A stretch of DNA of 64,000 bases from Eubacteriales bacterium (GCA_028705495.1 JAQWDK010000001.1:159228-223227); one strand, 5' to 3'. Shown: positions 11,820 to 37,525, counted from the first letter of the stretch. Made by a program: numbers and translations. The notes: generated by a model not told the origin, from the sequence alone.

Positions 11820-12031
11820 GTAATAATAGGGACAAAAACCTGAAAAGCCTTATGTGTCAATGGTTTTCGAGCATTTTTATAGGTTCATAAAATCTCACAA
11901 ATGTATTTATGAGTCAATAATAGTCCTTGAAGGCGAGTGAACATCTATTTGAAAATCGTCAATTTACTGTTGTAGGCGTGAATCTAATGCGGTTGTTTTA
12001 TGTGAGAAAGAACGGTATAACCGATATTTTC

Positions 12032-15945: not shown

Positions 15946-15961
15946 TAAGGATTATACAATT

Positions 15962-16588
15962 TTGACAGTTATTCTTGATTATGATATGGGTAACGTTTGT
16001 TCAATACAAAACATGTTAAAAAAAATTGGTGAGAAAGCTATTATTAGCCGTAACCCTGATATTATAACAAATGCAGACAAACTTATTTTGCCGGGTGTTG
16101 GCAGTTATGATATGGGAATGGAACAATTGAAACAATTTAATTTAATAGAACAAATAAAAATCCATGCTATTGATAAACAAAAACCTATACTTGGTATTTG
16201 TCTGGGTATGCAACTGTTGGGTAGAAGAAGTGAAGAAGGAAACAAGCAAGGATTAAGTTTGATACCATTTGATGTTGTGAAGTTTAACTTTGATTGTATT
16301 AATGTTGAAGAAAAAGGGTTAAAAATACCACACATGGGGTGGGATTATACACAAAATACATTTGATGATGTACTTACAGATAATCTCGACGAAAGACAGC
16401 GATACTATTTTGTCCATTCCTATTACGCAATGTGTGATGATACGGAGAATTCATTAATGTCATGTAAATATGGGTATCTATTTACTGCAGCAGTCAAAAA
16501 AGGTCGTATTTATGGGGTTCAATTTCATCCTGAAAAAAGCCATAACTTTGGGATGAAACTTCTTCAAAATTTTGTACAGAGGGTATAA
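15962..16588 (+). CDS. Glutamine amidotransferase, HisH paralog (WbuY-like)
   Basis: DYDMGNVCSI, nucleophile elbow GICLGMQLL, and VQFHPEKS. Confidence 0.85.
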   Translation: MTVILDYDMGNVCSIQNMLKKIGEKAIISRNPDIITNADKLILPGVGSYDMGMEQLKQFNLIEQIKIHAIDKQKPILGICLGMQLLGRRSEEGNKQGLSLIPFDVVKFNFDCINVEEKGLKIPHMGWDYTQNTFDDVLTDNLDERQRYYFVHSYYAMCDDTENSLMSCKYGYLFTAAVKKGRIYGVQFHPEKSHNFGMKLLQNFVQRV

Positions 16589-16590
16589 AA

Positions 16591-17379
16591 ATGTATCATA
16601 GACCTAGAATCATACCCCTTCTTTTAATTTCAAATCGTGATCTTGTAAAAACAATAAAATTTGCTAATCCACGATATATAGGTGACCCAATTAATTCAGT
16701 TAAGATTTTCAACGGTAAAGGTGTTGATGAACTTTGCGTACTTAATATAACTGCATCCAAAGAAAATAGAACACCCGATTTTGAATATTTAAAAGACATT
16801 GCCGGTGAAGCATTCATGCCACTTAGTTATGGTGGTGGAATTACTGATATAGAACAGATCAAAAAGATATTCCATATGGGGTATGAAAAAGTCGTAATAA
16901 ATACAGCGTTTTATTCCAAACCAAAACTTATCAATGAAGCAGCTCGATATGCAGGTAGTCAAAGTGTTGTTGTATCAATTGATGTTAAAACTGATATCTT
17001 CGGTAAAAAACGTTGCTTCTCAACAGATGGAACCATAAAAACAAAGCTTTTACCTATTGAGGCTGCACTGTTGGCTGAGACCCTTGGTGCAGGTGAATTA
17101 ATCGTAAATTCTGTAAATAATGATGGAGCTATGTGTGGATATGATATTGAACTTATAAGAAGTATAGCAGAAGCTGTTTCTATTCCAGTTACAGCTTGTG
17201 GTGGTGCTAAAGATATCACCGATCTTAAAAAAGTTTTAACTGAAGGTAAAGCGCATGCAGCTGCAGCTGGTAGTATGTTTGTATATTACGGAAGAGAAAA
17301 TGCTGTACTTATTACCGTTCCAAGTGAAAATGATTTAATAGATTCGGGATTTTATAGAAGAGAAGGGAGTCAGCAATAA
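16591..17379 (+). CDS. HisF-like cyclase-fold subunit (WbuZ-like)
   Basis: RIIPLLLISNRDLVKT and GAGELIVNSVNNDGAMCGYD are typical HisF/HisA barrel motifs. Confidence 0.85.
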   Translation: MYHRPRIIPLLLISNRDLVKTIKFANPRYIGDPINSVKIFNGKGVDELCVLNITASKENRTPDFEYLKDIAGEAFMPLSYGGGITDIEQIKKIFHMGYEKVVINTAFYSKPKLINEAARYAGSQSVVVSIDVKTDIFGKKRCFSTDGTIKTKLLPIEAALLAETLGAGELIVNSVNNDGAMCGYDIELIRSIAEAVSIPVTACGGAKDITDLKKVLTEGKAHAAAAGSMFVYYGRENAVLITVPSENDLIDSGFYRREGSQQ

Positions 17380-22384: not shown

Positions 22385-23746
22385 ATGAATGTAGTAATCG
22401 ATAGTACGGAAAAGAACAAGCGTAGCAACATTCTTGTAATAATGTTTTGCTCTATTACATGTGGTGCTCTATTCGCTTTAAAAAGCTCGCCATATGCATT
22501 GATAATATATGGAATAATTGCTATCATATCTCTTTTTAGTAAAAATAGATATATACCATTCATTATGATAGGCTCCAGTAATTACCTGCCAGCTGTATAT
22601 GGGATATCACCTCTTGTCTTCTGCACAATATTATTATTGCTAGTGTTAATGAAAGCCATGATCTTAAAAAGAAGCATTAGATTCGCCAAGTTTCCCACAT
22701 CATATCCCATACTGCTATTAATAATGATTGCTTGGAGTTTTATAACGGGAACAACTTACAATGATTTATCTTTTTTTGGAGATTTGATTACTATATCAAT
22801 ATTTGTTATAGTACTATATTTGCTCATGTCAAATTGTTCATTAATTACAGAATACATATTACGATATTTTGTCATTGGATTAGGAACTGGATTATTGTTT
22901 ACAGCCCTAATTAAAACTGGAATCGAGCGTTTTGTCAGTACACAACCTGATCGTTTAGCGATTGGAGAACGTGCTGATCCAAATTCAACGGCATTATTAT
23001 TCGCAATATTTTGTATATATATATTTATTAAGTTTTATGATAATTTGAGAAGCAAGAAACATTCTATATTATTCTACGGTATAGTGTTTGTTTTTGGTGT
23101 TACATGCTTGTTTTTGACTCAATCAAGGAGTGCAGCATTATGCCTCTTTATAACAATAGTATTATATATTCTTAATCGGAAAAAGAACATTGAAGATAGT
23201 TTTATGAGCTTCACTTTAAAATCAATTGCTTTAATATTATTTTTATTAGCAATATCACTTTTATTTACTACAGTTACAGAGTTAATTTTTGATTCATGGA
23301 ATGCGTTCTACTATAGACTTCAACATCCTGTATCTCAAGATGGCGAAAGAATATTTTTATTTAAAATGAGTGTAGAGACATTTTTGAAGAATCCATTTAT
23401 GGGTACAAGTTTAGACACTTTTAAATCAAATGTTGGTCACATACCACATAGTGCATTTAGTGATTATATGGTCACAAATGGAATAATTGGAGTGATATTT
23501 TATATATTCTTTTTTATCAGACCAATGTTGCATATTTTCCATATTAGGAAGAATAACAGAGTTAAACTTGAGTTTTATAGTTTTTTTGTGTGTGCACTTA
23601 ACATACTGTTTTATTCTGCATCAAACGAAAAAATAACGTTTTTCTTATTAATAATACTAATATTTTCATTGATTAACGATACTACAAAGGATGGTGATAT
23701 TGTAAGTGAAGAAATTGATCGTACTCCACGGAGCGACAAACTGTAA
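22385..23746 (+). CDS. wzy: Wzy-type polymerase / O-antigen ligase-family membrane protein
   Basis: About 10 TM, with the loop LFLTQSRSAALCLFI typical of the Wzy_C family. I prefer ATG 22385 (after AAGGA) to the track start 22301, which overlaps the previous gene by 52 nt. Confidence 0.6.
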   Translation: MNVVIDSTEKNKRSNILVIMFCSITCGALFALKSSPYALIIYGIIAIISLFSKNRYIPFIMIGSSNYLPAVYGISPLVFCTILLLLVLMKAMILKRSIRFAKFPTSYPILLLIMIAWSFITGTTYNDLSFFGDLITISIFVIVLYLLMSNCSLITEYILRYFVIGLGTGLLFTALIKTGIERFVSTQPDRLAIGERADPNSTALLFAIFCIYIFIKFYDNLRSKKHSILFYGIVFVFGVTCLFLTQSRSAALCLFITIVLYILNRKKNIEDSFMSFTLKSIALILFLLAISLLFTTVTELIFDSWNAFYYRLQHPVSQDGERIFLFKMSVETFLKNPFMGTSLDTFKSNVGHIPHSAFSDYMVTNGIIGVIFYIFFFIRPMLHIFHIRKNNRVKLEFYSFFVCALNILFYSASNEKITFFLLIILIFSLINDTTKDGDIVSEEIDRTPRSDKL

Positions 23747-24779
23747 ATCAAGTAATTATGGCGATTACTTATATGGCGAACTCATATATAAATACCTAAA
23801 AGAAAAAAGCTATAACGTCATATTCTATCAACCGTCTGATTTTTTTAAGAAGCATATACCAGGATACACCGGAATATGTGGTCGAAAAAATCCTGCCGCC
23901 GTTCTTTATGTCCCCGGAGGATATTTTGGTGAAGGACACAATGCAAGTTTCAGAGAAAATATCATACATTTTTTAAGATTCATGCCTCTTGGTATCTGGG
24001 CATCATTTCGACACACCCCAATGGCGGTCATTGGAGTAGGAGCCGGTCCCAATAATTGCAGATTATTAACATATGGAGTTAAAAGGATTTGTAATCATTC
24101 GGAGTTTGTGTCAGTCAGAGATAACATATCATATGAAGCAATAAAAGTTCTTTGTCCAAAGGCAAACCTGTATAACTGTTCAGATTTGATAGTTTCTTCA
24201 CTCCCATATTTGAGACAAAATAATACTAAACAAATATCTGAGATTATAAAAAGCAGGGGCAATAGAAAAATTCTGCTAATCCATTATAGTAATAACAGAC
24301 TTGCGTTGAGTCTGTTTGCTAAGGCTGCAAAAGCATTTATTAAATCTCATCCGGATTATTTTGTTGTTGTATCTTCTGATTCATGTCTTGAGAATGAATA
24401 CGAATTGTTTAGTCGTTTTAAAGAAATATTTGGTGAAGCCTGCGGACACTTTAACTATGATGATCCTGCAGAATTTACTGCACTTTTACAGCAAGCAGAT
24501 ATGGTATTGACATGTAAGTTGCATGTAGGTGTTGTTTCATGTTGCTACGGCAAATCTGTAATTGCCGCTGCATGCCATCCGGAAAAGACGAAGCGATTTT
24601 ATGAGCAAATCAGTACACCAGATCGTTGCGTATCACTATTTGAAACAACCACTGACGAATTAAGTCAACTTCTAGAAAAATTCTATTTAGCCCAGATAAG
24701 AATTCCTGATAGTTTAATTAATAAAGCCCAGATGTCATGGACACTACTTGATAATTTTTTGAATACATTGGATCGGTAA
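23706..24779 (+). CDS. Polysaccharide pyruvyl transferase-like protein
   Basis: The N-terminus LHGATNCKSSNYGDYLYGELIYKYL resembles the G-x-x-N-x-GD motif of the CsaB/WcaK family. GTG start overlapping the upstream gene. Confidence 0.5.
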   Translation: MKKLIVLHGATNCKSSNYGDYLYGELIYKYLKEKSYNVIFYQPSDFFKKHIPGYTGICGRKNPAAVLYVPGGYFGEGHNASFRENIIHFLRFMPLGIWASFRHTPMAVIGVGAGPNNCRLLTYGVKRICNHSEFVSVRDNISYEAIKVLCPKANLYNCSDLIVSSLPYLRQNNTKQISEIIKSRGNRKILLIHYSNNRLALSLFAKAAKAFIKSHPDYFVVVSSDSCLENEYELFSRFKEIFGEACGHFNYDDPAEFTALLQQADMVLTCKLHVGVVSCCYGKSVIAAACHPEKTKRFYEQISTPDRCVSLFETTTDELSQLLEKFYLAQIRIPDSLINKAQMSWTLLDNFLNTLDR

Positions 24780-24818
24780 AATGACAATCGAAAATCTAAA
24801 AACAAAAGAGGGATATAG

Positions 24819-25925
24819 ATGAAAACAGTAATGCTTGTCTTCGGAACACGTCCCGAAGCAATAAAAATGTGCCCGCTTGTTAATGAGTTGAAGACGCGTA
24901 AAAGTATTAAAACATTAGTTTGTGTTACAGGACAACATCGACAAATGTTAGACCAGGTACTTGAAACTTTTAACGTTGTGCCGGATTATGATTTATCAAT
25001 CATGAAGGACAAGCAGACTCTGTTCGATATAACCACTAATATTTTGAACCATATAAAAGAAGTACTTGAAATTGCTAAGCCTGATGTTGTTCTTGTTCAT
25101 GGTGATACATCAACAACTTTCGTAACGGCACTAGCTTGTTTCTATCTACAAATACCTGTGGGACACGTTGAGGCAGGTTTGCGTACATATAACATATATT
25201 CACCATACCCCGAAGAATTCAATCGACAAGCAGTAGGTATTGTCGCAAAATATAATTTTTCGCCTACAGAACTATCAAAGCAAAACCTTATTAATGAGGG
25301 AAAGAACCCAGATACCATATTCGTTACAGGAAACACTGCAATTGACGCATTGAAAACAACAGTAAAACAAAATTATACACATCCAGAATTAGAATGGGCA
25401 AAAGACAGTCGCCTTATTATGATTACAGCTCATCGTCGTGAAAATCTCGGTGAACCGATGCATAATATGTTCCGAGCAATTCGCAGAGTTATGGATGAGC
25501 ATCCGGATGTTAAAGCAATTTATCCAATTCACATGAATCCTGTTGTTCGTCAAGCTGCAGATATGGAACTTGGGGACTGTAATAGAATTCGAATTATCGA
25601 GCCTTTAGATGTGCTTGATTTTCACAACTTTTTAGCCCGTAGCTATATGATACTAACAGACTCCGGAGGAATACAAGAAGAAGCACCAAGTCTTGGTAAG
25701 CCTGTATTAGTTATGCGTGATACGACTGAACGTCCTGAAGGAATTAAAGCAGGAACATTAAAACTTGTTGGAACCGATGCGAAAATTATATATGAGAGCT
25801 TTAAAGAACTTCTTGAAAATAAGGAATCGTATGAAAAAATGAGCCATTCAAGCAATCCATATGGTGATGGTCTTGCTTGTAAACGAATTGCAGATATTTT
25901 GGAGGTAGGTCGTGTTACTTTTTAA
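24819..25925 (+). CDS. wecB: UDP-N-acetylglucosamine 2-epimerase (non-hydrolysing)
   Basis: VFGTRPEAIKMCPL, HVEAGLRT and TDSGGIQEEAPSLGKPVLVMRDTTERPE. Confidence 0.9.
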   Translation: MKTVMLVFGTRPEAIKMCPLVNELKTRKSIKTLVCVTGQHRQMLDQVLETFNVVPDYDLSIMKDKQTLFDITTNILNHIKEVLEIAKPDVVLVHGDTSTTFVTALACFYLQIPVGHVEAGLRTYNIYSPYPEEFNRQAVGIVAKYNFSPTELSKQNLINEGKNPDTIFVTGNTAIDALKTTVKQNYTHPELEWAKDSRLIMITAHRRENLGEPMHNMFRAIRRVMDEHPDVKAIYPIHMNPVVRQAADMELGDCNRIRIIEPLDVLDFHNFLARSYMILTDSGGIQEEAPSLGKPVLVMRDTTERPEGIKAGTLKLVGTDAKIIYESFKELLENKESYEKMSHSSNPYGDGLACKRIADILEVGRVTF

Positions 25926-26958
25926 AGAAAAAATTCTCATGATCACTGGTGGCACTGGTTCATTCGGTAATGCTGTGCTTAATCGTTTTTTACAAACAGA
26001 TATAAAGGAAATTCGCATACTCAGCCGCGACGAGAAGAAGCAGGATGATATGCGCCATGAGTATCAAGCGAAAATGCCAGAACTTTCGGGCAAAATAAAA
26101 TTCTTCATCGGTGATGTACGCGACTTAGCATCTGTTAAAAATGCTATGCACGGTGTCGACTACATATTCCATGCGGCAGCACTTAAACAGGTGCCCTCAT
26201 GTGAGTTTTTCCCTATGGAAGCCGTAAAGACGAACGTTATCGGCACAGATAATGTCCTGACCGCTGCTATTGACGAAGGTGTAAAGTCTGTTATATGCCT
26301 TTCAACTGATAAAGCTGCTTATCCTGTCAATGCTATGGGGACAAGCAAGGCGATGATGGAGAAGGTTATCGTTGCTAAATCTCGCACGGTTAACCCCGAC
26401 AAGACAAAAATCTGCTGTACACGCTACGGCAATGTGTTGTGTTCGCGTGGTAGCGTTGTTCCGCTGTGGATTGAGCAGATTAAATCTGGCAAGCCTATCA
26501 CAATTACCGACCCTAATATGACACGCTTCATTATGTCACTTGATGAGGCTGTTGACCTTGTCCTGTTCGCTTTCGAGAACGGTACAAGCGGTGATATTCT
26601 CGTACAGAAAGCTCCTGCTTGTACGATTGGAACACTGGCTCAAGCTGTTAAAGAGCTGTTTAACACAAAAGATGATATCAGGGTTATCGGCATCCGCCAC
26701 GGTGAGAAGATGTATGAAACACTTCTGACTAACGAGGAATGTTCTGGAGCGATTGACCTCGGAAGTTTCTACCGTGTTCCTTGTGACAAGCGCGACCTCA
26801 ACTACGATAAATATTTTAAAGACGGCGATATACAGCGTAATACATTGACCGAGTTTAACTCAAACAACACTGATTTGCTTAATGTCGAACAAGTCAAAGC
26901 AAAACTTCTTACTTTACGGTATGTCAGAGATGAAATAGCAACATGGGAGAATAAGTAA
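25912..26958 (+). CDS. fnlA: UDP-GlcNAc 4,6-dehydratase/5-epimerase (FnlA/CapE)
   Basis: ITGGTGSFGNAVLNRFL, the CLSTDKAAYPVNAMGTSKAM motif and YGNVLCSRGSVVPLW. At 348 aa it matches the FnlA/CapE family. Confidence 0.85.
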   Translation: MLLFKEKILMITGGTGSFGNAVLNRFLQTDIKEIRILSRDEKKQDDMRHEYQAKMPELSGKIKFFIGDVRDLASVKNAMHGVDYIFHAAALKQVPSCEFFPMEAVKTNVIGTDNVLTAAIDEGVKSVICLSTDKAAYPVNAMGTSKAMMEKVIVAKSRTVNPDKTKICCTRYGNVLCSRGSVVPLWIEQIKSGKPITITDPNMTRFIMSLDEAVDLVLFAFENGTSGDILVQKAPACTIGTLAQAVKELFNTKDDIRVIGIRHGEKMYETLLTNEECSGAIDLGSFYRVPCDKRDLNYDKYFKDGDIQRNTLTEFNSNNTDLLNVEQVKAKLLTLRYVRDEIATWENK

Positions 26959-28103
26959 TGAACATACTTATAACCGGGGCTAAGGGTTTTGTCGGCAAGA
27001 ACCTTGTCGCTTGGCTTAACAACATAAAAGAAGGGAGGGACAAAACCTTCTCTTTAAATACTGACCTTAATATATTCGAATATGATATAGACACAGACCC
27101 AACATTGCTTGACGAGTACTGCTGTTCGGCTGACTTTGTCTTTAACCTCGCCGGAGTGAACCGCCCTAAGGACCAGGGCGAATTCATGTCCGGCAATTTT
27201 GGCTTTGCTTCAACCTTGCTTGACACGCTCAAGAAGCATGGCAACTCATGCCCCGTTATGCTGTCATCTTCAACCCAGGCAGCGCTTGACAACCCCTATG
27301 GCCAGTCAAAAAAGGCAGGTGAGGACTTGTTCTTTGAGTATGCCAAAACAACAGGTGCTGAAGTTTTGGTCTACCGCTTTCCCAATGTGTTCGGTAAATG
27401 GTGCAAACCAAATTACAACAGCGCAGTAGCGACATTCTGCCACAACATAGCACACGACTTGCCGATCACCGTTAACGATCGCAGCGTTGTGATGAACCTT
27501 GTGTACATAGATGATGTGGTTACCGAGCTAATCAACGCGCTTGCAGGCAAGGCAAACAAAAGGGAAGACAACTTTTGCTATGTTCCAGTGGTGCATACAA
27601 TAACCCTCGGTGAGATCGTTGACCTTATTTATTCTTTCAAAGCCAGCCGTGACGACCATAGCGTACCGAATATGGCTGATGCATTTACAAAGAAACTTTA
27701 TGCAACATACCTTTCCTACCTACCGACGGACAAGTTTAGCTACCCCCTTAAGATGAACATCGACGAGCGCGGCAGTTTTACTGAAATCATCCGCACACCT
27801 GAACGTGGGCAGTTTAGCGTTAATATATCAAAACCTGGTATCACCAAGGGAAACCACTGGCACAACACTAAGAACGAGAAATTTCTTGTCGTCAGCGGCA
27901 GGGGAGTGATAAAATTTCGCAGAGTTGACAACGACGAAGTAATTGAGTATTATGTAAGCGGAGACAAGCTCGAAGTAGTTGACATCCCAACCGGATATAC
28001 TCACAACATCGAAAACCTCGGTGAAAGCGACATGGTAACGTTCATGTGGGCAAACGAGTGCTTTGATCCGAACAAGCCTGATACTTTTTTTGAGAAGGTG
28101 TAA
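26958..28103 (+). CDS. fnlB: UDP-2-acetamido-2,6-dideoxy-hexose reductase/epimerase (FnlB/CapF)
   Basis: N-terminal SDR ILITGAKGFVGKNL plus a C-terminal cupin (KGNHWHNTKNEKFLVVSG). The start shares the ATGA overlap with the fnlA stop. Confidence 0.85.
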   Translation: MNILITGAKGFVGKNLVAWLNNIKEGRDKTFSLNTDLNIFEYDIDTDPTLLDEYCCSADFVFNLAGVNRPKDQGEFMSGNFGFASTLLDTLKKHGNSCPVMLSSSTQAALDNPYGQSKKAGEDLFFEYAKTTGAEVLVYRFPNVFGKWCKPNYNSAVATFCHNIAHDLPITVNDRSVVMNLVYIDDVVTELINALAGKANKREDNFCYVPVVHTITLGEIVDLIYSFKASRDDHSVPNMADAFTKKLYATYLSYLPTDKFSYPLKMNIDERGSFTEIIRTPERGQFSVNISKPGITKGNHWHNTKNEKFLVVSGRGVIKFRRVDNDEVIEYYVSGDKLEVVDIPTGYTHNIENLGESDMVTFMWANECFDPNKPDTFFEKV

Positions 28104-28167
28104 AACCTAAGTATAACCTATCAAGTTTCTGATATTGTGTAAATATAACAACAAAGGGAGAGAAGTA

Positions 28168-29214
28168 ATGGACAAGATTGAGTCTTGTGTTATGAAAGAT
28201 GCGAAAATTTCTTTTTGTCCATCTATTGCATTAGAAGTGCTATGCTTCATACAGAAACAATCTCTCGATGATACAAAATGGATGGATAAAAGACAGATAG
28301 ATGAAATAAAAAACATCAACGAACAATTACCTGATTCATTTTCAAATCGGCGTATTGGTATGTCAACATTATCTTTGATTCTTAGCACATACACTGATAA
28401 CCATTTAGAGGATATTTCTATAGATGATTTAATAACTATTTTCAGAAAACCATCTGATATATCAAGTGTTGTAAGAAACCGAATTACCAATGAATATACC
28501 GCATCTTATGTTTACCCAACGCTGGAGTTGCTTTGCGATGGATGGGCAGATAAATATATTGAAAAAATATCTATAATGAAAGAAATCGGATTTGAACAGC
28601 AGTATAAAACTCGGATTCTTCCATTAGTTCAAAAAGAAATTGAAGAAAAAAGTCAGAATATAATAAAATACAATACAGTTAATCTGTTTAATCAAATTTC
28701 AATTCTAAAAAGTCAGCCTTTAGTTGAGAAGGTAAAAATATTTGTTTCTTTTTTCAGTTTTCCGACTGCATTCACACTTTATAAAGGTAATTTTCTGACA
28801 TGCTTTACTGCAAATGATACAGATTTTTTTAGCCTGATTGCACATGAACAAATGCACGGATTCGCATGTAGCGAAACAATTGAATTGTATAAGCAGTATG
28901 TTGCGCAGGATTCTTATCTTACTGAAATGCACAAGCATCTAATCGATGATATGCAGTCAGGAGATGAAGAAGAAATGGTAATGGCAGCAGAATACTATTT
29001 GTGCCTATTAGCAGGTAGTTACACAAAAGAAAAATTGCTGCAATACGCAAAAACACGGTATAACGGATATTGCCCAACCTCAGTTATCTTATTTCATTTA
29101 TTATCAGAAGAAGCGGAATTGCCATCAGATTATAATAAGTGGCTCATTAATAAATTTCAAACAAAACAACTTCCCCAAAATAATATTCCTGAATATTTAG
29201 ACCAGATAAGATAA
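28168..29214 (+). CDS. Unknown protein with HExxH metallopeptidase-like motif
   Basis: ATG 28168 follows GGGAGAG. There is a single IAHEQMHGF motif with a downstream acidic patch, GDEEEMVMAAEYY. I recognise no polysaccharide-enzyme motifs. Confidence 0.55.
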   Translation: MDKIESCVMKDAKISFCPSIALEVLCFIQKQSLDDTKWMDKRQIDEIKNINEQLPDSFSNRRIGMSTLSLILSTYTDNHLEDISIDDLITIFRKPSDISSVVRNRITNEYTASYVYPTLELLCDGWADKYIEKISIMKEIGFEQQYKTRILPLVQKEIEEKSQNIIKYNTVNLFNQISILKSQPLVEKVKIFVSFFSFPTAFTLYKGNFLTCFTANDTDFFSLIAHEQMHGFACSETIELYKQYVAQDSYLTEMHKHLIDDMQSGDEEEMVMAAEYYLCLLAGSYTKEKLLQYAKTRYNGYCPTSVILFHLLSEEAELPSDYNKWLINKFQTKQLPQNNIPEYLDQIR

Positions 29215-29239
29215 TCCAAGATGATTATCAAATAGATTG

Positions 29240-29292
29240 AAACGAGTGCTTTAATCCGAACAAACCAGATACGTATTTCGAAAAGGTGTAAA
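29240..29292 (+). pseudogene. Orphan second copy of the fnlB 3' end
   Basis: Its 53 nt align without gaps to 28052-28104, with 46/53 identical by my count. It encodes NECFNPNKPDTYFEKV* versus NECFDPNKPDTFFEKV* in fnlB. Confidence 0.8.
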
Positions 29293-29332
29293 TATTAGTA
29301 TATTATACTTCAATCACTACATTTGAGGAAAA

Positions 29333-31099
29333 ATGATGAAATACTTTGACTTCGTAAAGTTCACTTTATATAATGAATACTGGTATATAAACTGTTTAAC
29401 TAAAGGTAATTTTAATGATGAAGGCACTATTGTATCAAAATTCATCTTACCAAAGAAAAAGGAAAAAGAGTTCAAAAATCAATTAGGCAATTTCCATTAT
29501 AACAATCTTGGAATCATTCCGGACGAAATCCTTCAAAAAGTGTCAAGCTCTCTTCCAATTGAAGAGGTTATTGACTTTTTACATAATAATTATCTTGAAG
29601 TGCTAACCCTTATAGAAAAAACAAAGGTACATAATATTGCAGTTATAAGTAACTTTTCAGATGAAGTCTCAGAGTTATTAATGCAAATAGATAGAATTTG
29701 GATTTGCAATCCTGAACCTTTGACAGTGAACGAAAATGGTGAGCTTAAGGTAGTTTTTGACGCAAGCGCTGGGTATCAAACCTCACTTGTTTTCAAAAAT
29801 GCTGAGATATCTCAAGAAGTAAATTTTGAATTTGAAGATATTAATAGTTATGAATATTCAAAAGAAAATGAGTTTTATACCCTTGACATTGCAACTTCGA
29901 ATGATATTGTTACTATTAAATTTAGCGATGTTGAACGAGTTCAAGAGTTCTTTGATTACTCATCAAGTTTAATAAACCCCACTACGCCAAAAGATTTTTA
30001 TCCATGGACTATTGTTGCAAACATACTCAATGAACTTAAACTTCTTGAATCAAAATTTGGAGCAGAACGATTAAACAACAAAGAAAAGGTCTTCTTGCCT
30101 CTTGTTAATTTTGCCCCTATTATGTTTCAATATAGCCTCTTTGATATTGCTGAGCACGATCGCAATATTAAGAGTATTGAGTTTTTTGAAACTCTTGTCA
30201 AAGAGCACAATGTTGAATATCTAATACCGCTATTAAATCAACTTAAACAATGTACCGACAAGTCAAAATTATTACACCTTACTCGAAAAGTTAGTCTTGC
30301 GTTGTTTGATAAACGCTGCGAACCGTTATGGAGACGAATTTATCAAGACTTAAAAGACGCAGCTTCGGTGTACCCGTTAAAGAATGAAATTAATAAATAT
30401 GATCTCGAAACCGAACGCAAACGCATAACAAAATTTTTATTATCACAAGATTATACCGGGAAGTACCCCTTTTTTAAAAAGCTTACGTCTTTAAAAGGTA
30501 TAAAAATGCTTGCAAATCTAACTAACACATACTTTGTTGGACATGAAAAAAACATGGCTTCCTATATATTTTGTGAAGAAAGCTTCCTTTATGATGATAG
30601 ACTTTTTATCTCTTATCTTTGTGGTACAATCTTTTTAAAACCGAAACAATTAGATAAATTCGACCAACTTGATGCATATAGTGCATTTTTTGTTGACAAA
30701 GGTCGTAGATTTACTTCAATTGTTAGACAAAGTGTTTATGATTTTGATGATAATATGATTGTAAAACCAGACATTTCTATTGCTTTGATAGCAGCTAAAA
30801 AAGCAAGCGTGCAAAGATTGACAAAAGAAGAAAACAATAAAATAATGTCTGCAGATAATACCAGCATTTTAACAATTATAATAGCTTGTATGGTTTTTGG
30901 CAGCTTCCTTTTTGGTCTTGCAATGACAATCGCAATGATGGTTATAACATTTATTTTGGGAGTTACTGAAAACCAATCAATTGAATTAATTATGGAATTT
31001 ATTAAAACATTTCCTTGGCACTGGGTATTTTTAGGTTCAGGACTTCCATTCGGTATAATTTTAGGGATGTTTACGATTATAGCCAGGAAGAGAAAGTAG
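29333..31099 (+). CDS. Unknown 588-aa protein, large soluble N-region plus 2-3 C-terminal TM helices
   Basis: GAGGAAAAATG start context. The C-terminus is ILTIIIACMVFGSFLFGLAMTIAMMVITFILGV...WVFLGSGLPFGIILGMFTIIA. I recognise no family. Confidence 0.55.
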   Translation: MMKYFDFVKFTLYNEYWYINCLTKGNFNDEGTIVSKFILPKKKEKEFKNQLGNFHYNNLGIIPDEILQKVSSSLPIEEVIDFLHNNYLEVLTLIEKTKVHNIAVISNFSDEVSELLMQIDRIWICNPEPLTVNENGELKVVFDASAGYQTSLVFKNAEISQEVNFEFEDINSYEYSKENEFYTLDIATSNDIVTIKFSDVERVQEFFDYSSSLINPTTPKDFYPWTIVANILNELKLLESKFGAERLNNKEKVFLPLVNFAPIMFQYSLFDIAEHDRNIKSIEFFETLVKEHNVEYLIPLLNQLKQCTDKSKLLHLTRKVSLALFDKRCEPLWRRIYQDLKDAASVYPLKNEINKYDLETERKRITKFLLSQDYTGKYPFFKKLTSLKGIKMLANLTNTYFVGHEKNMASYIFCEESFLYDDRLFISYLCGTIFLKPKQLDKFDQLDAYSAFFVDKGRRFTSIVRQSVYDFDDNMIVKPDISIALIAAKKASVQRLTKEENNKIMSADNTSILTIIIACMVFGSFLFGLAMTIAMMVITFILGVTENQSIELIMEFIKTFPWHWVFLGSGLPFGIILGMFTIIARKRK

Positions 31100-31183
31100 C
31101 TAACTGTAAATATAACTGCATTGAGATAAGGTTTAAAAGACATAAAATTTACTATAATTAAAATAATTATTTAAGGGTAAAGC

Positions 31184-31843
31184 ATGAGAAAAAATAAAAA
31201 TAAATATAAATATAAATCCGCTCTTCCGGAACAAGTGCTCGATGAAATTACGCTGTATGTTAAAGCTGCTGCAGAAATTTACGGAGTTATTGCGATTAGC
31301 AAGCTTGCAGAAATAATAAATTCTCAAAATGAATATCAAGTTACGGAAGAAGATATAGAATTTGTATTTAATCGTGGAGAACATTTTTTCTGTTGTAATT
31401 ATGATAAAAATATAATTCACGAATCTTTAATGATAAATGACGATGACGAAGATTATTATAATATACTCACTAGGCAGGAGGACAAACCTTATAAAGTGCC
31501 AGAAAAGGATGAGTTTTTAAAATATTCAGACAATGATACAATACAAGTACCAGAAGCATTTAAAAAGCTGCGTAAATACCTTGTCGCCGAAGTTGAAATA
31601 ATGCGTGATTTTGCCGAAGAAATATGCGACGACTTATTTATTGGAATTAATTTTAATGATGAAGTTGAAAACATCATTGTCGAATTTTCAAGACGGGGAA
31701 TATACCCAACAGATGATCAAATGGAGTGTATAACTAAACTTTATTTCGAGTGTCGTGAAAAAATATCTCTCTGGGAAAACCGTGGCTATTCCTACGAGGA
31801 ACTAAATCAAATGGGGGTAAATATTGAATATGATGATGAATAG
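31184..31843 (+). CDS. Unknown acidic 219-aa protein
   Basis: A K-rich N-terminus followed by a strongly acidic body (INDDDEDYY, EYDDE*). The stop overlaps the fnlC start region. Confidence 0.5.
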   Translation: MRKNKNKYKYKSALPEQVLDEITLYVKAAAEIYGVIAISKLAEIINSQNEYQVTEEDIEFVFNRGEHFFCCNYDKNIIHESLMINDDDEDYYNILTRQEDKPYKVPEKDEFLKYSDNDTIQVPEAFKKLRKYLVAEVEIMRDFAEEICDDLFIGINFNDEVENIIVEFSRRGIYPTDDQMECITKLYFECREKISLWENRGYSYEELNQMGVNIEYDDE

Positions 31844-32978
31844 ACTTAAACTAATGACAATAATCGGCACAAGGCCTGAGATCATCCGCTTGTCCGAGAC
31901 TATAAAAAAATGTGATAAATATTTTAATCAAATTCTTGTGCATACGGGACAGAACTATGATTACGAGTTAAATCAGGTGTTTTTTGACGATCTCTCTCTG
32001 CGCGCCCCTGACTTTTTTCTAAATGCAGTCGGAGCTGATTTAGGTGAAACGATCGGCAATATAATCGCTAAATCATATAAGCTTATGGCCGAACAAAAAC
32101 CCGATGCGCTGCTTATTTTGGGAGACACGAATTCATGTCTGTCTGCAATTTCCGCAAAGAGGCTGCATATTCCAATATTCCACATGGAAGCAGGTAACCG
32201 CTGCTTTGACGAGTGCCTTCCGGAGGAAACCAACAGGCGAATAGTTGACCATATCGCTGACGTCAACCTCTGCTACAGCGAGCACGCAAGGCGTTATCTG
32301 AATGCAGAGGGTACTGCCAAGGAGCGCACCTATGTCACAGGTTCACCTATGGCGGAGGTGCTGCGCTCCAACCTCGATAAAATTAACTCGAGTACAATAC
32401 TTGACAAGTTAAAGCTTGAAAAAGGGAAGTACATTCTTCTTTCTGCTCACCGTGAGGAAAACATCGACACGGAAGCAAACTTTTTCAGCTTAATGAACGC
32501 AGTCAACGCAATGGCTGAGAAATATGATATGCCAATCCTGTACTCCTGCCATCCGAGAAGTGCAAATTATATCGAGAAACGTGGGTTTAAGTTTGATAAG
32601 CGTGTGATACAAAATAAGCCACTTGGATTCCATGATTATAACAATTTACAGATGAACGCTTTTGCTGTTGTCTCGGACAGCGGTACACTCCCGGAAGAGT
32701 CTAGTTTCTTCCTGTCTGTCGGAAATCCATTCCCAGCAGTTTGCATCCGTACCTCCACCGAACGCCCAGAAGCGCTCGACAAGGGCAACTTCATACTCGC
32801 AGGCATCACCATAGAACAAGTGCTGCAGGCAGTCGATATCGCAGTAGAGATGAACCGCAACGGCGACTACGGCATTCCTGTACCGGACTACACAGAAGAA
32901 AATGTGAGCACCAAGGTCGTGAAGATAATTCAATCATATACAGGTATCGTGGATAGGATGGTCTGGAGAAAATATTAG
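31824..32978 (+). CDS. fnlC: UDP-2-acetamido-2,6-dideoxy-L-talose 2-epimerase (FnlC/CapG)
   Basis: LMTIIGTRPEIIRLSETIKKCDKYFNQILVHTGQNYDYELNQVFF is the CapG/FnlC-type epimerase N-terminus. The true start is probably one of the ATGs at 31830-31836. Confidence 0.85.
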   Translation: MNMMMNRLKLMTIIGTRPEIIRLSETIKKCDKYFNQILVHTGQNYDYELNQVFFDDLSLRAPDFFLNAVGADLGETIGNIIAKSYKLMAEQKPDALLILGDTNSCLSAISAKRLHIPIFHMEAGNRCFDECLPEETNRRIVDHIADVNLCYSEHARRYLNAEGTAKERTYVTGSPMAEVLRSNLDKINSSTILDKLKLEKGKYILLSAHREENIDTEANFFSLMNAVNAMAEKYDMPILYSCHPRSANYIEKRGFKFDKRVIQNKPLGFHDYNNLQMNAFAVVSDSGTLPEESSFFLSVGNPFPAVCIRTSTERPEALDKGNFILAGITIEQVLQAVDIAVEMNRNGDYGIPVPDYTEENVSTKVVKIIQSYTGIVDRMVWRKY

Positions 32979-33266
32979 TAATGGTGTCATGATAGAATAC
33001 AAGTCTTGAGTAAGGATTGGTGTTAAAGATGGGGCATTGCTTTTTTTAATAATGTTATCTTATATTTAGTTATAAACGAGTTTTGATTGATGTATTATGA
33101 ATACCCAAATAAGGGTGCGTTTTCATTATATATTGCCTTTTAGGATTTTCTTTACCCAAATGAATTACTTACAATACTTGACATTGCTTGCAGTATAGGT
33201 TATTATATTCATAATGAATTAAGATACTTTTGCTTCATAGTAAAAGAAAGCTTTTAGGGTAAAGAA

Positions 33267-33656
33267 ATGAAAAAATATTTGACGATTGCGCTTCTAGCGA
33301 TTATACCAATGTTCTTAATGACCAAAGCGGATTCTATAAAATTTACAGCTGAAGTGACAGAACCTCCTTTGATATATAACGCTTATTTTCCTTTAAATAT
33401 TAATGTACACGATAGTACGGCAGACTTTGAAATCTATATTGATAAATGGTCTGGCTTCCTTAAAGAGAAGTGTCTTGTTATTAAACTGGAATCTGATTTG
33501 AGATTTTACTTCGATGGAGAAGAGACTGATACAGCAAGAATTTTCTTAGGGCAGTATACAGGTGAAAAATATGCGCTGAAAATAAAGGCTGTGGGCACAG
33601 ATGGTGTTCACGAGTTTACTACGCAAGTAAGTACAGAAGAACCGAGTTTAGATTAA
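33267..33656 (+). CDS. Small secreted protein, unknown
   Basis: Signal peptide MKKYLTIALLAIIPMFLMTKADS. Confidence 0.45.
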   Translation: MKKYLTIALLAIIPMFLMTKADSIKFTAEVTEPPLIYNAYFPLNINVHDSTADFEIYIDKWSGFLKEKCLVIKLESDLRFYFDGEETDTARIFLGQYTGEKYALKIKAVGTDGVHEFTTQVSTEEPSLD

Positions 33657-33794
33657 TATATGATGAGTTGAATATAACGATTGTCTCAACCAGAATTACC
33701 TAAGTTAATGATTTGGTTGAGAAAACAGAGAAAGAGTAATAGATCAATGTCTTAAATTCCAACCCCTATTATATACCGCTTATTAAATTAGTAA

Positions 33795-33850
33795 AATCCC
33801 GATAAGGTATAGTGTGCTAGCCATCGTGTTAGTTGTACCTTATCGGGATT
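33795..33850 (+). terminator. Hairpin terminator candidate
   Basis: A 15-bp stem, aatcccgataaggta (33795-33809) / taccttatcgggatt (33836-33850), followed by attttat. Confidence 0.5.
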
Positions 33851-33923
33851 ATTTTATATCTATCTCTTTATGCATTTATGTGGTTCTTTGTCTTTAGCAA
33901 ATAATAAACTTTTATAAAACAAC

Positions 33924-33952
33924 TTGACAGTTCATTTGTACACTGTTATAAT
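33924..33952 (+). promoter_or_regulatory. Sigma-A type promoter of helicase gene
   Basis: TTGACA (33924-33929), a 17-nt spacer, then TATAAT (33947-33952). Confidence 0.55.
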
Positions 33953-33965
33953 AAAAACACGCTCA

Positions 33966-33977
33966 GAACAAATGTTC
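33966..33977. promoter_or_regulatory. LexA (Cheo/SOS) box
   Basis: aGAACaaatGTTCt is a perfect GAAC-N4-GTTC that fits CGAACRNRYGTTYC. It lies 14 nt downstream of the -10. Confidence 0.6.
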
Positions 33978-34095
33978 TTGCTATTTATGAGTATAATAGA
34001 TAAACATATGAAATCATTATCATTGAGAGCTATTTACCGGAAAGCAATAAAAACGAACGAAAAAGAAGATGCTTTATTAGAAAGGATCACACTTC

Positions 34096-36279
34096 ATGCT
34101 TAATTTAGATGGCTTAAACGAAAAACAAATAGAGGCTGTAACATCAATAGATGGTTATTTTCGTGTTATTGCAGGTGCAGGATCAGGAAAAACAAAGGCA
34201 CTGACGCATCGTTATGCTTATCTCGTAGGCGAAGCAGGTATACCTCCACGCAATATTTTGTGTGTAACTTTTACGAATAAAGCGGCTTGTGAAATGAAAA
34301 AACGTGTCAAAGCTCTCGTTGGTAAAGACTGCGATACATCCTTAATAACAACCTATCACGGCTTTTGTGCAAGGGTATTACGAGAAGATATTAGCGGTTT
34401 GTTTTATCCGGAAAACTTCTTGATTCTTGATACACCTGACCAGAAGGTAATATTAAGTGAAATATACGACCGTCTTAATATAAGCCTCGATTTCGCATCA
34501 TATGAAGACATATGCTTGGCAATTGATATATATAAAGACGACCAGTCCTATGTTGATTATCTTGTTGATCCCAAAGCTGAAATACATCCCGAAAAAGCCA
34601 AAAGCCTTAAAGAAAAAATAATATTGAATTATTTAATAGGACAAAAAAAGATATTTGGGTTAGATTTTAACGACTTGATGTACTTTACATTTGCGCTCTT
34701 TAAGAAAAAACCGGAGATAAAACAAAAATGGCAGGAGCAGATACAATATATACTCGTTGATGAATTTCAAGACTGCTCGAAGCGTGAATATAGACTTATA
34801 AATATTTTAAGTGAAGTTAACAAAAATCTTTTTGTCGTTGGAGATCCCGATCAAACTATTTACGGCTGGCGTGGAGCTGACATGAAAATAATAATGGATT
34901 TCGATAAAAAGTATCCTAAAACTAAAACAATCATGTTAAACCAAAACTACCGCTCTACACCCGAAATAATCGCAACAGCAAATTCTCTTATTGCAAACAA
35001 CAAGATACGAATAGAAAAAGAGCTTTTTTCAAAGCTCGAACCTGGTGTGCTTCCAGAACATCTACATGCTACAGATGAAAAAAGCGAAGCCGAAGGTATA
35101 ATAAAAAGAATTAAAGCACTACTAAACGAAGGCTATAGATATAGTGATATTGCAATATTATATCGTGCTGCTTATGTATCAAGATTTATTGAGCAATATT
35201 TCACAAAAGAGGGAATACCGTTTGAGATATTCGGAAGCCTTAGGTTTTTTGAGCGCATGGAGATAAAAGATGCGCTTGCATTTCTACGGCTTGCCGCATT
35301 TGGTGATGATATATCATTTCTTCGCATTATAAACAAACCGAGAAGGCGAATGGGCAAGCCGAAGGTTGTTTATTTAAAAGAACTTGCGGCAGCTCATGGT
35401 GGCACGCTCTATGAAAATCTTAAAAATCATCTTGGTGATGAAATCTTTGCTAATACTGGTGCAGCTCAATTTGTTACTTTGATTGAAGAACTTCGTGCCA
35501 AAGTAGACAGCGTAAATCCATCAGTTCTATTACAATTAGCGTTATTGAAATCGGGTTACGAAGAATTTATACGCAAAGACGGAGATATGGACAGACTTGA
35601 TAACATCGCCGAACTTAAACGCACGGTTGAAGTATACCAAGAAAACTACGGAGAATTTTTGCCACTCAAAGTCTTTTTACAACAGATAGCGGTAGGGTTT
35701 GATAATGAAGCAGACGATAAACGCAACTTTATTAAGCTGATGACGATACATGCGGCTAAAGGTCTTGAGTTTCCAGCTGTCTTCGTTTGTGGTATGACCG
35801 AAGGCATCTTTCCGTCAAGCAGGACAATAGAAGAATGGTTCCAAGCCGGGCTTGAAGAAGAGCGTAGGTTATTCTATGTTGCAATCACTAGGGCAAAAAA
35901 CAAACTCTACCTAACAGAATCAGAAGGTATCGGAGCTAATAATCAAAAAACACCGTCACGATTTCTTTTTGAAATAAATGAGAATTTATATACCAGAACT
36001 GGCCGTATACCTGAAGAACTTATTCGAAAAACGAAGAAGAAGGCTGGTATATCCAATAAAGCGGAAACGCAAACCTATCAAGTTGGCAGTTCGGTTTTAC
36101 ATCCGTTGTTTGGTGAAGGTATCATCGAGAGCATTGATGACAAATATAAAGTTTATAATGTAAGGTTTAAGAAAAATGGTGCGATTAAATCTATTAGATT
36201 TGATTATGTTGGATTGTCTCAAATAAATAATGACACATCTAGTAGATTAGAGGAATCATTTTTAAATTTCAATCTTTGA
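34096..36279 (+). CDS. UvrD/PcrA/Rep-family SF1 DNA helicase
   Basis: Walker A AGAGSGKTKALTHR, VDEFQDCS, TIHAAKGLEF and LFYVAITRAKNKLYL. The C-terminal SVLHPLFGEGIIESID...YNVRF is a Tudor-like tail. Confidence 0.9.
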   Translation: MLNLDGLNEKQIEAVTSIDGYFRVIAGAGSGKTKALTHRYAYLVGEAGIPPRNILCVTFTNKAACEMKKRVKALVGKDCDTSLITTYHGFCARVLREDISGLFYPENFLILDTPDQKVILSEIYDRLNISLDFASYEDICLAIDIYKDDQSYVDYLVDPKAEIHPEKAKSLKEKIILNYLIGQKKIFGLDFNDLMYFTFALFKKKPEIKQKWQEQIQYILVDEFQDCSKREYRLINILSEVNKNLFVVGDPDQTIYGWRGADMKIIMDFDKKYPKTKTIMLNQNYRSTPEIIATANSLIANNKIRIEKELFSKLEPGVLPEHLHATDEKSEAEGIIKRIKALLNEGYRYSDIAILYRAAYVSRFIEQYFTKEGIPFEIFGSLRFFERMEIKDALAFLRLAAFGDDISFLRIINKPRRRMGKPKVVYLKELAAAHGGTLYENLKNHLGDEIFANTGAAQFVTLIEELRAKVDSVNPSVLLQLALLKSGYEEFIRKDGDMDRLDNIAELKRTVEVYQENYGEFLPLKVFLQQIAVGFDNEADDKRNFIKLMTIHAAKGLEFPAVFVCGMTEGIFPSSRTIEEWFQAGLEEERRLFYVAITRAKNKLYLTESEGIGANNQKTPSRFLFEINENLYTRTGRIPEELIRKTKKKAGISNKAETQTYQVGSSVLHPLFGEGIIESIDDKYKVYNVRFKKNGAIKSIRFDYVGLSQINNDTSSRLEESFLNFNL

Positions 36280-36415
36280 AACTTTAAGAAGAGATTGATA
36301 TAGCTGACTTTAATTAGATATACTCCTCATAGCAGATATAATCGTAGTGTGTTTGTTATAAAAAAACTTCGAAGTTCAAAACGTAGATATACATCTGCCA
36401 CGCACAATAGAGGAA

Positions 36416-37525
36416 TCAATTTTCTTGATATACATTAGATGCCTCATCCGGTTTTAGATAGGCATACAAATAGTGATCAAATAAATAAAACTCCGTTTCT
36501 TTATACGGATATTGTCGGTCGTATGAACCAATATTTTGAGCATTACCGATTTTATCAATTCTCAAATTTGCACGTCGAAATGTTTGTGGCACGGTCAATT
36601 GTTTGTACATGGAATAGTTGAAAGAATCTGAAATAGAAATATGATTGCAAATATCGGATAACTCTTTTTCAGGAGAGTAGAGTGCAAATAGGGCCAAATT
36701 AACGCCAATCGAATATGCAAAAATATCGTTTTCTACTTGCTTTGAGTAGTAAGTAAGGCCTGACAATCCTTTTTTCATGCATGCTAACATAACTAATTGA
36801 GAAATAATATATTCAGATTTGAATACTCGATTTGATTCTTTAACTTTGAAAGATGTTGCAAGTGACAATAGAAATAACTTGAAGATGCTTTTACGATTTA
36901 CATCTGAATATTTTTTTGACCAGCAAAAATCTCTAAAGTTTACTGCTAAGTTTAAAATCTGTTGTGTGTTATCCAAAGTCACTGGAGATACATTAAACAT
37001 ATGGTCAGCAGGTCTGCCCATCTCCATCCAGCAGACATATGAAGAAGTTCCTAAATACAAGCAGGGAAGCCCCAGAATACTAAAACGTTCTGACTTTACT
37101 ATTGAACGTTTTGAAAAAGGAATATGTAGCATTTCTTTACCTTTATAATCAGTGATTTTCTCATTGCAACGTGCTCTGAAAAACTGGACGTCTTGTTCGC
37201 ATAAATATGTACAAAAGGAAATGCTATTGTTTATGTGTGACACTGCTAAGCGACTATCACAAACTTCCAATATTAGTTCATCCATTTGATGTTGGGCTTC
37301 AAAAATATAGCCGCAGTAATACTGATCGACAGCAAATAGTAGCACACTTCTGTATTTCTTTACTTCTTCCACATAATGGTCCTCTGCATTAACTTCTATG
37401 AGAGCATCCTCCAACTTTTGAAAAATTTCTTTTAATGCCCCCCTATATTCGTTGTCTTTGCTGATTATAATTGGAGTGTAAAAAAGGTTATGTTTTTCCC
37501 AGAATCGATCAATCCAGTCACACAT
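36416..37525 (-). CDS. RES-domain protein with unassigned N- and C-terminal regions
   Basis: FFRARC (about aa 115) and SERFSILGLPCLYLGTSSYVCWMEMGRP...NVSPV fit the R-E-S core pattern of RES toxins. About 110 N-terminal and about 100 C-terminal residues are unassigned. Confidence 0.6.
   Translation of the reverse strand: MCDWIDRFWEKHNLFYTPIIISKDNEYRGALKEIFQKLEDALIEVNAEDHYVEEVKKYRSVLLFAVDQYYCGYIFEAQHQMDELILEVCDSRLAVSHINNSISFCTYLCEQDVQFFRARCNEKITDYKGKEMLHIPFSKRSIVKSERFSILGLPCLYLGTSSYVCWMEMGRPADHMFNVSPVTLDNTQQILNLAVNFRDFCWSKKYSDVNRKSIFKLFLLSLATSFKVKESNRVFKSEYIISQLVMLACMKKGLSGLTYYSKQVENDIFAYSIGVNLALFALYSPEKELSDICNHISISDSFNYSMYKQLTVPQTFRRANLRIDKIGNAQNIGSYDRQYPYKETEFYLFDHYLYAYLKPDEASNVYQEN

Follow-up and report, generated by a model that had tools for sequence, protein, structure and literature searches.

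In the capsule (polysaccharide) operon of a Eubacteriales bacterium (metagenome-assembled genome GCA_028705495.1, JAQWDK010000001.1:159228-223227; the full stretch of 64,000 nucleotides [nt] analyzed here is referred to as the window), three open reading frames (ORFs), ORF1 to ORF3, lie between the fnlB-like and fnlC-like genes of a predicted UDP-L-FucNAc pathway (L-FucNAc, N-acetyl-L-fucosamine). We read this interval, with a probability of about 0.7, as a slot of variable content that lies within a mosaic capsule operon, was filled in at least two to three separate events, is read through by operon transcription, and ends in a gene, ORF3, to which the translation of fnlC is coupled. Recombination would have filled the slot at the fnlB–fnlC junction piecemeal with three unrelated genes, each under selection: the event that attached ORF1 to the fnlB end would have left a 53-nt fnlB relic behind, in a block that a sister lineage shares, and ORF2 (a DUF3878 protein with a C-terminal membrane anchor) occupies this position only in the present genome. 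The three genes are probably transcribed by read-through from the capsule operon, because its last gene, fnlC, must be reached through them; this cotranscription, like the order of the recombination events, is something that we infer.

Three separately distributed genes between fnlB and fnlC

An earlier note on this stretch of DNA had pointed out that three same-strand ORFs set the fnlA/fnlB pair 3.7 kb apart from fnlC, and the gene coordinates bear this out (Table 1). It had further proposed that the trio forms a single passenger module (a putative peptidase, a membrane protein, and an acidic partner) acting in defence, immunity, or capsule modulation and riding on capsule-operon transcription. 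Several features fit such a module: all three genes point the same way and lie close together, none separated from the next by a terminator-like site, and ORF1 is zincin-like. The element of shared transcription is plausible, as a consensus scan found no plus-strand terminator-like site between positions 26431 and 33102. The three families do not, however, keep company elsewhere. A word-indexed search of 5.8 billion proteins recovered homologue clusters numbering 24 (ORF1), 7 (ORF2), and 4 (ORF3); among the contexts of these homologues, two of the families never share a contig except in this organism. ORF1 homologues (40 to 75% identity) occur alone in unrelated settings: alongside SASP, cupin, and DinB-type polymerase genes; alongside serine recombinases, a helix-turn-helix protein, and a sigma factor; alongside GH2 and superoxide dismutase; or alongside DUF4253. 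ORF2 homologues adjoin DUF6273 with Hen1/Pnkp, PCMT, a pseudouridine synthase, or DUF6320. Relatives of ORF1, ORF2, or ORF3 are likewise absent, by tblastn, from 80 related fnl loci, which were fetched with FnlB and limited to one genome per species.

The only pairs that recur are fnlB–ORF1 and ORF3–fnlC, and other genes adjoin them there: one contig (L092) has ORF1 but another gene instead of ORF2, and the clade formed by contigs L010, L096, and L097 has ORF3 but APH and/or VanZ instead of ORF1 and ORF2. A role in defence fares no better than the module itself. Searches of ORF1 to ORF3 against Pfam, NCBIfam, PHROGs, and PADLOC yielded DUF3878 (in ORF2) as the sole match; for each of the three, PADLOC-DB returned zero families at E ≤ 0.1 and PHROGs returned none, and no ORF3 relative was present in viral contigs. 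The same Pfam and NCBIfam searches uphold the observation that none of the three belongs to a glycosyltransferase, polymerase, flippase, or sugar-modifying family. One domain of the ORF2 model resembles chains D/E of the PT7-PIM7 toxin/immunity structure (8owu; E = 0.045 over 115 columns), which would suit a defence module, but the match is local, is below significance, and may be to either the toxin or the immunity chain; it was rejected. Taken with a cassette whose base composition is host-like (see below), the missing co-occurrence largely refutes the single-module proposal, which we regard as highly improbable.

A direct repeat of 53 nt, the top direct repeat within 10.5 kb, brackets ORF1: its first copy is the functional 3′ end of fnlB, and its second is a noncoding relic of that end (46/53 nt identical [87%]; tblastn E = 8e-6 against FnlB residues 366-381). 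No further fnl fragments were found in the cassette or 3′ of fnlC. In two independent ENA metagenome contigs, L092 and L093, the 3′ half of fnlB (92% identical at the amino acid [aa] level) is followed, after 63 nt of spacer, by a homologue of ORF1 (86% aa identity) and a truncated relic. Their collinearity with the window (88.5% nt identity) spans 27456-29277 and stops inside the relic. The fnlB, ORF1, and relic sequences therefore constitute a single inherited block, the relic of which would mark a recombination breakpoint and reads as a recombination scar. An origin of the relic in another allele of fnlB was also considered, since 5 of the 7 differences are synonymous; this reading is weakened because synonymous changes in the functional fnlB copy could give the same pattern, and the L092 relic is identical at 32/33 positions to the resident fnlB end of the window. 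Between the window and L092, the synonymous divergence (dS) of fnlB is 0.88 and that of the adjacent ORF1 is 0.26, which suggests either a further fnlB exchange or a compositional artefact. The gene that follows the relic in L092, in the place of ORF2 (L092:1944-2114), starts with MRENLKLIWSFAKNFKLRFIILYFCILTTTF and resembles, by eye, the membrane domain of an ABC exporter, although the 57-residue fragment has no Pfam match.

Base composition points to the fnl genes, and not the cassette, as the outliers. The earlier impression that the cassette is more AT-rich than the flanking fnl genes is confirmed upon computation (GC content of 0.31-0.32 for ORF1 to ORF3 versus 0.43-0.46 for the fnl genes), but AT-richness fails as a sign of passenger status, given that the cassette equals the window background. 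The GC content at third codon positions (GC3) is 0.26 in ORF1, 0.27 in ORF2, and 0.25 in ORF3, against a range of 0.26-0.30 for neighbouring genes (0.26 in the upstream wecB, 0.29 in the pyruvyl transferase gene, and 0.29 in the downstream helicase gene). As such, the cassette has a host-like composition, and the fnl genes depart from it (Table 1). Across 30 related loci, fnl GC3 tracks the local GC content (e.g., 0.25-0.30 where the flanks have 33% GC); therefore, the high GC3 in the window is not intrinsic to fnl genes. The same compositional step appears in the sister contig L092 (GC3 of 0.56 in fnlB and 0.29 in ORF1) and in L010 (0.50 in fnlB and 0.25 in the ORF3-like gene), and with both carrying it, we dropped a simple, recent import of the fnl genes as a dated event and retain the step for its descriptive value.

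Contiguity of the fnl genes is the norm from which this locus departs, in agreement with the expectation set out in the earlier note. Among the 75 related loci that hold both fnlB and fnlC, the gap between the two genes is ≤20 nt in 54, 21-150 nt in 10, and >150 nt in 11; 10 of these last 11 contain an ORF of ≥60 aa within the gap. The contents of the gaps, established by Pfam scans of representative inserts, are diverse. VanZ occurs in L035 and, together with a second gene, in L019, and the inserts of L070 and L079 are similar to VanZ by eye only. An O-acyltransferase (Acyl_transf_3) lies in L027, NTP_transf_5 plus an acyltransferase in L014, and an FdtA-like cupin in L074, with near-identical (unscanned) ORFs in L048 and L073. 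In six of the closest relatives (L013, L015, L018, L023, L024, and L026), the fnlA–fnlB junction is interrupted by an ORF of ~335-395 aa (at ~8800-10000 in each); the one in L018, the only one of the six scanned, is NTP_transf_5 (PF14907). This family is thus present at both junctions, since it also occurs between fnlB and fnlC in L014, and an unscanned insert in L019 looks similar.

Interruption of the fnl cluster is, then, recurrent in this group, and it is the content of the interruption that is unusual here. In L080, a Proteiniphilum metagenome-assembled genome of another phylum, the fnlB–fnlC junction (11165-13235) contains genes for an ATPase of the AAA_21 family (446 aa) and for a protein resembling RloB (213 aa). 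Such AAA_21 and RloB-type pairs are often tied to abortive infection or defence. L080 demonstrates that true passengers can settle in the slot and, to this extent, lends the single-module proposal a precedent. The fnlB–fnlC junction (and, in close relatives, the fnlA–fnlB junction) is a recurrent insertion point in Clostridia, which matters for annotating and typing the capsule loci of metagenomes.

ORF3 and its overlap with fnlC

ORF3 is strongly acidic, as previously noted (pI 4.45, net charge of −23), and has no Pfam match, nor did a PDB profile search return anything meaningful. Its end overlaps the start region of fnlC, also as described before: the ORF3 stop codon (31841-31843) runs 8 nt into an fnlC gene whose mechanically called start is the TTG at 31824 but whose relatives' N termini place the start at the ATG at 31836 (MNRLKLMTIIGTRPE versus MSKLNLMT...). 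The identical 8-nt overlap (ATGAGTAA) is present in L010, L096, and L097, in which homologues with 55-57% identity to ORF3 lie directly 5′ of fnlC. The gene order is fnlB–APH–VanZ–ORF3 homologue–fnlC in L010, a contig whose first gene is of the FnlB type, represented by its C-terminal half (83% aa identity; Polysacc_synt_C), and which ends at the fnlC start (MSKLNLMTVIGTRPEIIR), and VanZ–ORF3 homologue–fnlC in L096 and L097. Wherever the downstream context of a stand-alone ORF3 subfamily member is visible (four members), fnlC lies directly 3′, and ORF3–fnlC is a conserved pair across two diverged clades. The overlap of the ORF3 stop with the fnlC start in both clades suggests that ribosomes terminating on ORF3 probably reinitiate to translate fnlC, making this junction a testable example of coupling between a small upstream cistron and the gene of a sugar-nucleotide epimerase.

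ORF3 itself evolves under purifying selection, with a ratio of nonsynonymous to synonymous substitution rates (dN/dS) of ~0.2 and only 56% protein identity between the two clades. The ORF3-like gene of L096 (705-1352) has an in-frame stop after codon 47 and is either a pseudogene or the product of an assembly error. Within fnlC, the window and L097 share 80-82% nt identity over the first 120 nt and 59-65% beyond, versus 73-81% throughout in loci that lack ORF3; this hints at a recombination breakpoint inside fnlC, a signal confounded by the conservation of the N terminus.

A metagenome scan identified 24 loci with ORF3 relatives, one of which is the fnlC-linked L097. In the other 23, the relatives (25-37% identity) form the N-terminal domain of proteins of ~370-460 aa, none with fnl neighbours. 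The three long relatives that were scanned have a SEC-C motif (PF02810, E = 2e-10) after the ORF3-like domain, and one also has Rho_N. The relationship extends over ~190-200 residues, almost the whole of ORF3 (tblastn E = 1e-9 to 1e-17 for the full-length matches among the 23 loci; blastp down to 3e-18). ORF3 lacks the Cys-rich SEC-C motif and ends just before the position at which it would occur. By these matches, ORF3 is a homologue, standing alone, of the domain at the N terminus of SEC-C-motif proteins.

The constancy of the ORF3–fnlC pair invites a functional reading, in which ORF3 (and possibly ORF1) would genuinely serve the L-FucNAc branch as an accessory factor, with ORF3 binding or regulating FnlC or setting its stoichiometry through coupled translation and ORF1 processing a protein of capsule assembly. 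The shared overlap between clades that are 56% identical in protein, the presence of fnlC 3′ of all four stand-alone members, the low dN/dS of ORF3, and, for ORF1, its position beside fnlB in L092 and L093 together with a dN/dS of 0.24 are all consistent with this. Against these stand the 54 of 75 related loci, as well as the characterized systems, that operate with contiguous fnlB and fnlC genes and no ORF3 (PMC5774825), the disrupted copy in L096, the 23 loci in which ORF3 relatives are parts of SEC-C-motif proteins away from fnl genes, and the ORF1 relatives of 50-75% identity that reside away from capsule genes. On balance, we consider an accessory role unlikely. A bolder form of the idea holds that the ORF3 subfamily is an undescribed FnlC-dedicated factor, derived from the SEC-C N-terminal domain and translationally coupled, that tunes or partners the last UDP-L-FucNAc step in one clade of Clostridia from guts and fermenters, and that the ORF1 family is a new structural class of zincin hydrolase; this we hold to be somewhat less likely still.

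At the opposite extreme, ORF1 to ORF3 would be functionless hitchhikers or decaying remnants caught between tracts of recombination, with ORF3 being the truncated 5′ part of a SEC-C gene that was cut when it was joined to fnlC. ORF3 does end exactly where its longer relatives run into the SEC-C motif, the L096 copy has a stop codon, and the fnlB relic attests to imprecise recombination at this locus. But the reading frames are intact, the dN/dS values of 0.2-0.24 for ORF1 and ORF3 hold over substantial divergence, the catalytic-type motif of ORF1 is invariant, ORF2 retains the conserved columns of its family, and each gene has its own Shine-Dalgarno-like site (5′ of ATG 29333 for ORF2 and of ATG 31184 for ORF3; for ORF1, see below). 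We therefore give the decay scenario very little credence.

The preferred reading, that of a slot filled in separate events, has several points to contend with. Co-occurrence was judged on few, mostly short contigs, and the ORF2 and ORF3 families number only 7 and 4 close clusters. The positions of ORF1 beside fnlB and of ORF3 beside fnlC in other lineages could denote ties to the pathway as opposed to neutral fillers. The GC3 step is common to lineages with saturated synonymous sites (L010), so it does not simply reflect a recent import of the fnl genes. Finally, no sequence or fold search gave a significant match behind the assignment of ORF1 as a peptidase (Foldseek reached E = 0.38 at best).

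Predicted products of ORF1 and ORF2

ORF1 is annotated as PHY15_02320, and ORF3 as PHY15_02310, in exact copies at NCBI. The ATG at 28168 is preceded by a Shine-Dalgarno-like sequence (AAAGGGAGAG), which the mechanically called TTG start at 28135 lacks; therefore, 28168 is the better start for ORF1. The earlier note had recognized an HExxH motif in ORF1 with an acidic patch about 45 aa downstream: both are present (HEQMH at residues 226-230 and GDEEEMVMAAEYY at residues 265-277), but the spacing is 35 residues past the second His. The gluzincin-like signature proved to be a family trait, in that H226, E227, H230, G265, E267, E268, A273, A274, and Y276 are invariant in 23 aligned ORF1-family sequences. 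A full HMMER search of 1.84 billion representatives expanded the family to 177 clusters at 50% identity; HExxH is kept in 97 of 100 full-length members, 85 of which also match the downstream EE pattern. Of 10 distant members scanned, 4 have a C-terminal PDZ domain along with the HExxH motif.

Neither Pfam nor NCBIfam recognizes ORF1, and a PDB profile search returned nothing relevant. Its AlphaFold2 model is confident (pLDDT of 92.8, pTM of 0.90), with short beta-strands ahead of the HExxH helix and with G265, E267, and E268 at the start of helix 268-282. Foldseek retrieved nothing significant with this model (best E = 0.38 in the PDB and 1.1 in the viral BFVD, with TM-scores of <0.25); the weak matches are enriched for M1 and M61 gluzincins, which is a hint only, and Pfam M13 scores below threshold in 5 of the 23 family members (best E = 0.02). 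ORF1 lies outside every catalogued peptidase family. It is most likely a zincin-like metallopeptidase or metallohydrolase, a prediction in which zinc binding and catalysis are inferred from the motif. The dN/dS of 0.24 cited above, computed against the L092 homologue, denotes purifying selection.

Two observations touch on a possible further branch of the ORF1 family. One member, P0152 (576 aa), fuses an extracytoplasmic function (ECF) sigma factor (Sigma70_r2 and r4) to an ORF1-like domain without HExxH, and in L004 a sigma-70-like gene lies 3′ of the ORF1 homologue. The family may thus include a regulatory (anti-sigma-like) branch. Being moderately large and having a confidently predicted structure with no solved match, it is a reasonable target for structural and enzymatic work.

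ORF2 contains Pfam PF12994 (DUF3878) at residues 151-385 (49.5 bits, above the cutoff of 27), an annotation that its homologues share. The earlier description of a soluble region followed by two to three C-terminal transmembrane helices matches its hydrophobic segments (504-547 and 564-584). Its AlphaFold2 model (pLDDT of 75.5) combines helical with two beta-rich regions, ends in membrane helices, and has no significant fold match; a sequence search of the PDB returned nothing meaningful, and the literature searched held no paper on DUF3878.

The operon and its relation to known systems

Family searches of the window genes delimit a capsule operon on the plus strand from ~12070 to 32978. Its products include an initiating transferase (Bac_transf), GT1/GT4 transferases, a UDP-sugar dehydrogenase, a Polysacc_synt_3 flippase, and a HisH/HisF-like pair; further 3′, there follow a pyruvyl transferase gene, wecB, and the fnlA-like and fnlB-like genes. 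The three fnl products were compared with the corresponding models: TIGR04130 is the top NCBIfam match of the FnlA-like protein (528.8 bits, under the 730-bit equivalog cutoff, with PseB second at 315 bits), NF047837 aligns over the full length of the FnlB-like protein (403 bits, under the cutoff of 500), and the FnlC-like protein exceeds the cutoff of TIGR00236 (218 versus 210 bits) and is 75-90% identical to the product of the gene 3′ of fnlB in related loci. The predicted sugar of the operon is of the UDP-L-FucNAc type, and may be UDP-L-FucNAc itself or a related 6-deoxy-L-hexosamine. An Rfam search of 23000-37000 gave no RNA match at E ≤ 1.

Table 1. Features of the fnl region, in window coordinates
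Feature	Coordinates	Strand	Basis
fnlA-like gene, UDP-N-acetylglucosamine (UDP-GlcNAc) 4,6-dehydratase/5-epimerase type	25912..26958	+	Pfam Polysacc_synt_2 1e-106; GC3 0.44
fnlB-like gene, CapF/WbjC-type reductase with C-terminal cupin-like domain	26958..28103	+	Pfam Polysacc_synt_C 2.5e-51; GC3 0.54
Direct repeat copy 1, functional fnlB 3′ end (last 16 codons plus stop)	28052..28104	+	Repeat search; blastn E = 1.2e-12
ORF1, cytoplasmic, HExxH...G-x-EE...AAxY motif (zincin-like), uncharacterized family	28168..29214	+	Alignment, AlphaFold2 model
Direct repeat copy 2, noncoding fnlB 3′-end relic (NECFNPNKPDTYFEKV*), 3′ of ORF1	29240..29292	+	Repeat search, tblastn
ORF2, DUF3878; large cytoplasmic part plus 2-3 C-terminal transmembrane helices	29333..31099	+	Pfam PF12994; hydrophobic segments
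ORF3, small acidic cytoplasmic protein, upstream partner of fnlC	31184..31843	+	Homologues in L010/L096/L097
ORF3 stop (TAG)/fnlC start (ATG) 8-nt overlap, probable translational-coupling junction	31836..31843	+	Window ATGAATAG
fnlC-like gene, nonhydrolysing UDP-GlcNAc 2-epimerase family	31836..32978	+	Pfam Epimerase_2 2.3e-79; GC3 0.50
First plus-strand terminator-like hairpin 3′ of fnlB, likely operon end	33102..33117	+	Consensus scan only

Several neighbouring features merit mention. The wecB gene (24819-25925) is a canonical second 2-epimerase gene (TIGR00236, 512 bits) with a host-like GC3 of 0.26 and runs into the start of fnlA, which is GC-rich; two 2-epimerases, wecB and the fnlC-like gene, thereby share the operon while differing in compositional origin. 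At 14794-17379, a 383-aa protein without a Pfam match precedes a HisH-like glutamine amidotransferase and a HisF-like cyclase, a set that we take to resemble the WbuX/Y/Z-type genes making acetimidoyl sugars (e.g., L-FucNAm), in which case the L-FucNAc produced by the fnl genes may undergo further modification. Beyond the operon end, a 129-aa ORF (33267-33656) has a signal-peptide-like N terminus and no family match. A 35-nt repeat (D7) links the start of this ORF (33241-33275) with that of ORF3 (31159-31193) at 71% identity and is probably merely a similar ribosome-binding context. Farther downstream, a UvrD/PcrA-type helicase (34096-36279) strongly matches the PADLOC models for GajB and for a DRT-associated helicase (1e-102 to 1e-104), models that also catch generic UvrD helicases.

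As a whole, the locus is a recombinant capsule locus, which is a known kind, with the probable ORF3–fnlC coupling and the ORF1 family as new details; nothing in it is categorically new, and it has no bearing on a long-standing open question. Its lesson is that tightly packed, co-directional genes without known function in a capsule operon need not make up a hidden system: here, they would be the contents of a recombination slot.

Comparison with characterized systems places the locus as follows. The UDP-L-FucNAc gene sets fnlABC, capEFG, and wbjBCD are found in the capsule and O-antigen loci of S. pneumoniae, E. coli, S. aureus, P. aeruginosa, and A. baumannii (PMC5774825). The fnl-like genes of the window are predicted to encode these three enzyme families and keep their order, within a polysaccharide operon of the Wzx type; the window differs from those sets in that fnlB and fnlC are 3.7 kb apart, with a second fnlB 3′-end relic in the gap, and in that GC3 in the fnl genes is double that of the remaining operon.

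The products of the slot can each be set beside a known family. ORF3 shares DKPRYIPEKDEFLKY and R[IL]WEN[NR]GY with the N-terminal domain of the SEC-C-motif (PF02810) proteins of anaerobe metagenomes, whereas ORF3 and its fnlC-linked relatives lack the zinc-binding motif and the C-terminal domain, and the long forms do not lie beside fnl genes. ORF2 extends beyond the Pfam model of DUF3878 with added N-terminal and C-terminal (transmembrane) regions. ORF1 resembles the gluzincins (clan MA: M1, M13, and M61) in having its HExxH on a helix after a small beta-sheet and a Glu-bearing helix (EExxxAAEY) ~35 residues farther on; we presume a likeness to LF/MtfA-type gluzincins as well. Some members of its family are fused to PDZ domains, as are M61 peptidases, but the helical N-terminal part of ORF1, of ~200 residues, has no counterpart among gluzincins.

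With respect to mosaic capsule and O-antigen loci that contain accessory genes (VanZ-like, O-acyltransferase, NTP_transf_5, and WbuC/FdtA-like cupin genes), the occupants in the window (an HExxH family, DUF3878, and a SEC-C N-terminal domain) are not the usual ones and have no predicted sugar activity. The locus is nonetheless like them in kind: insertions at gene junctions recur in such loci, and recombination scars are to be expected there.

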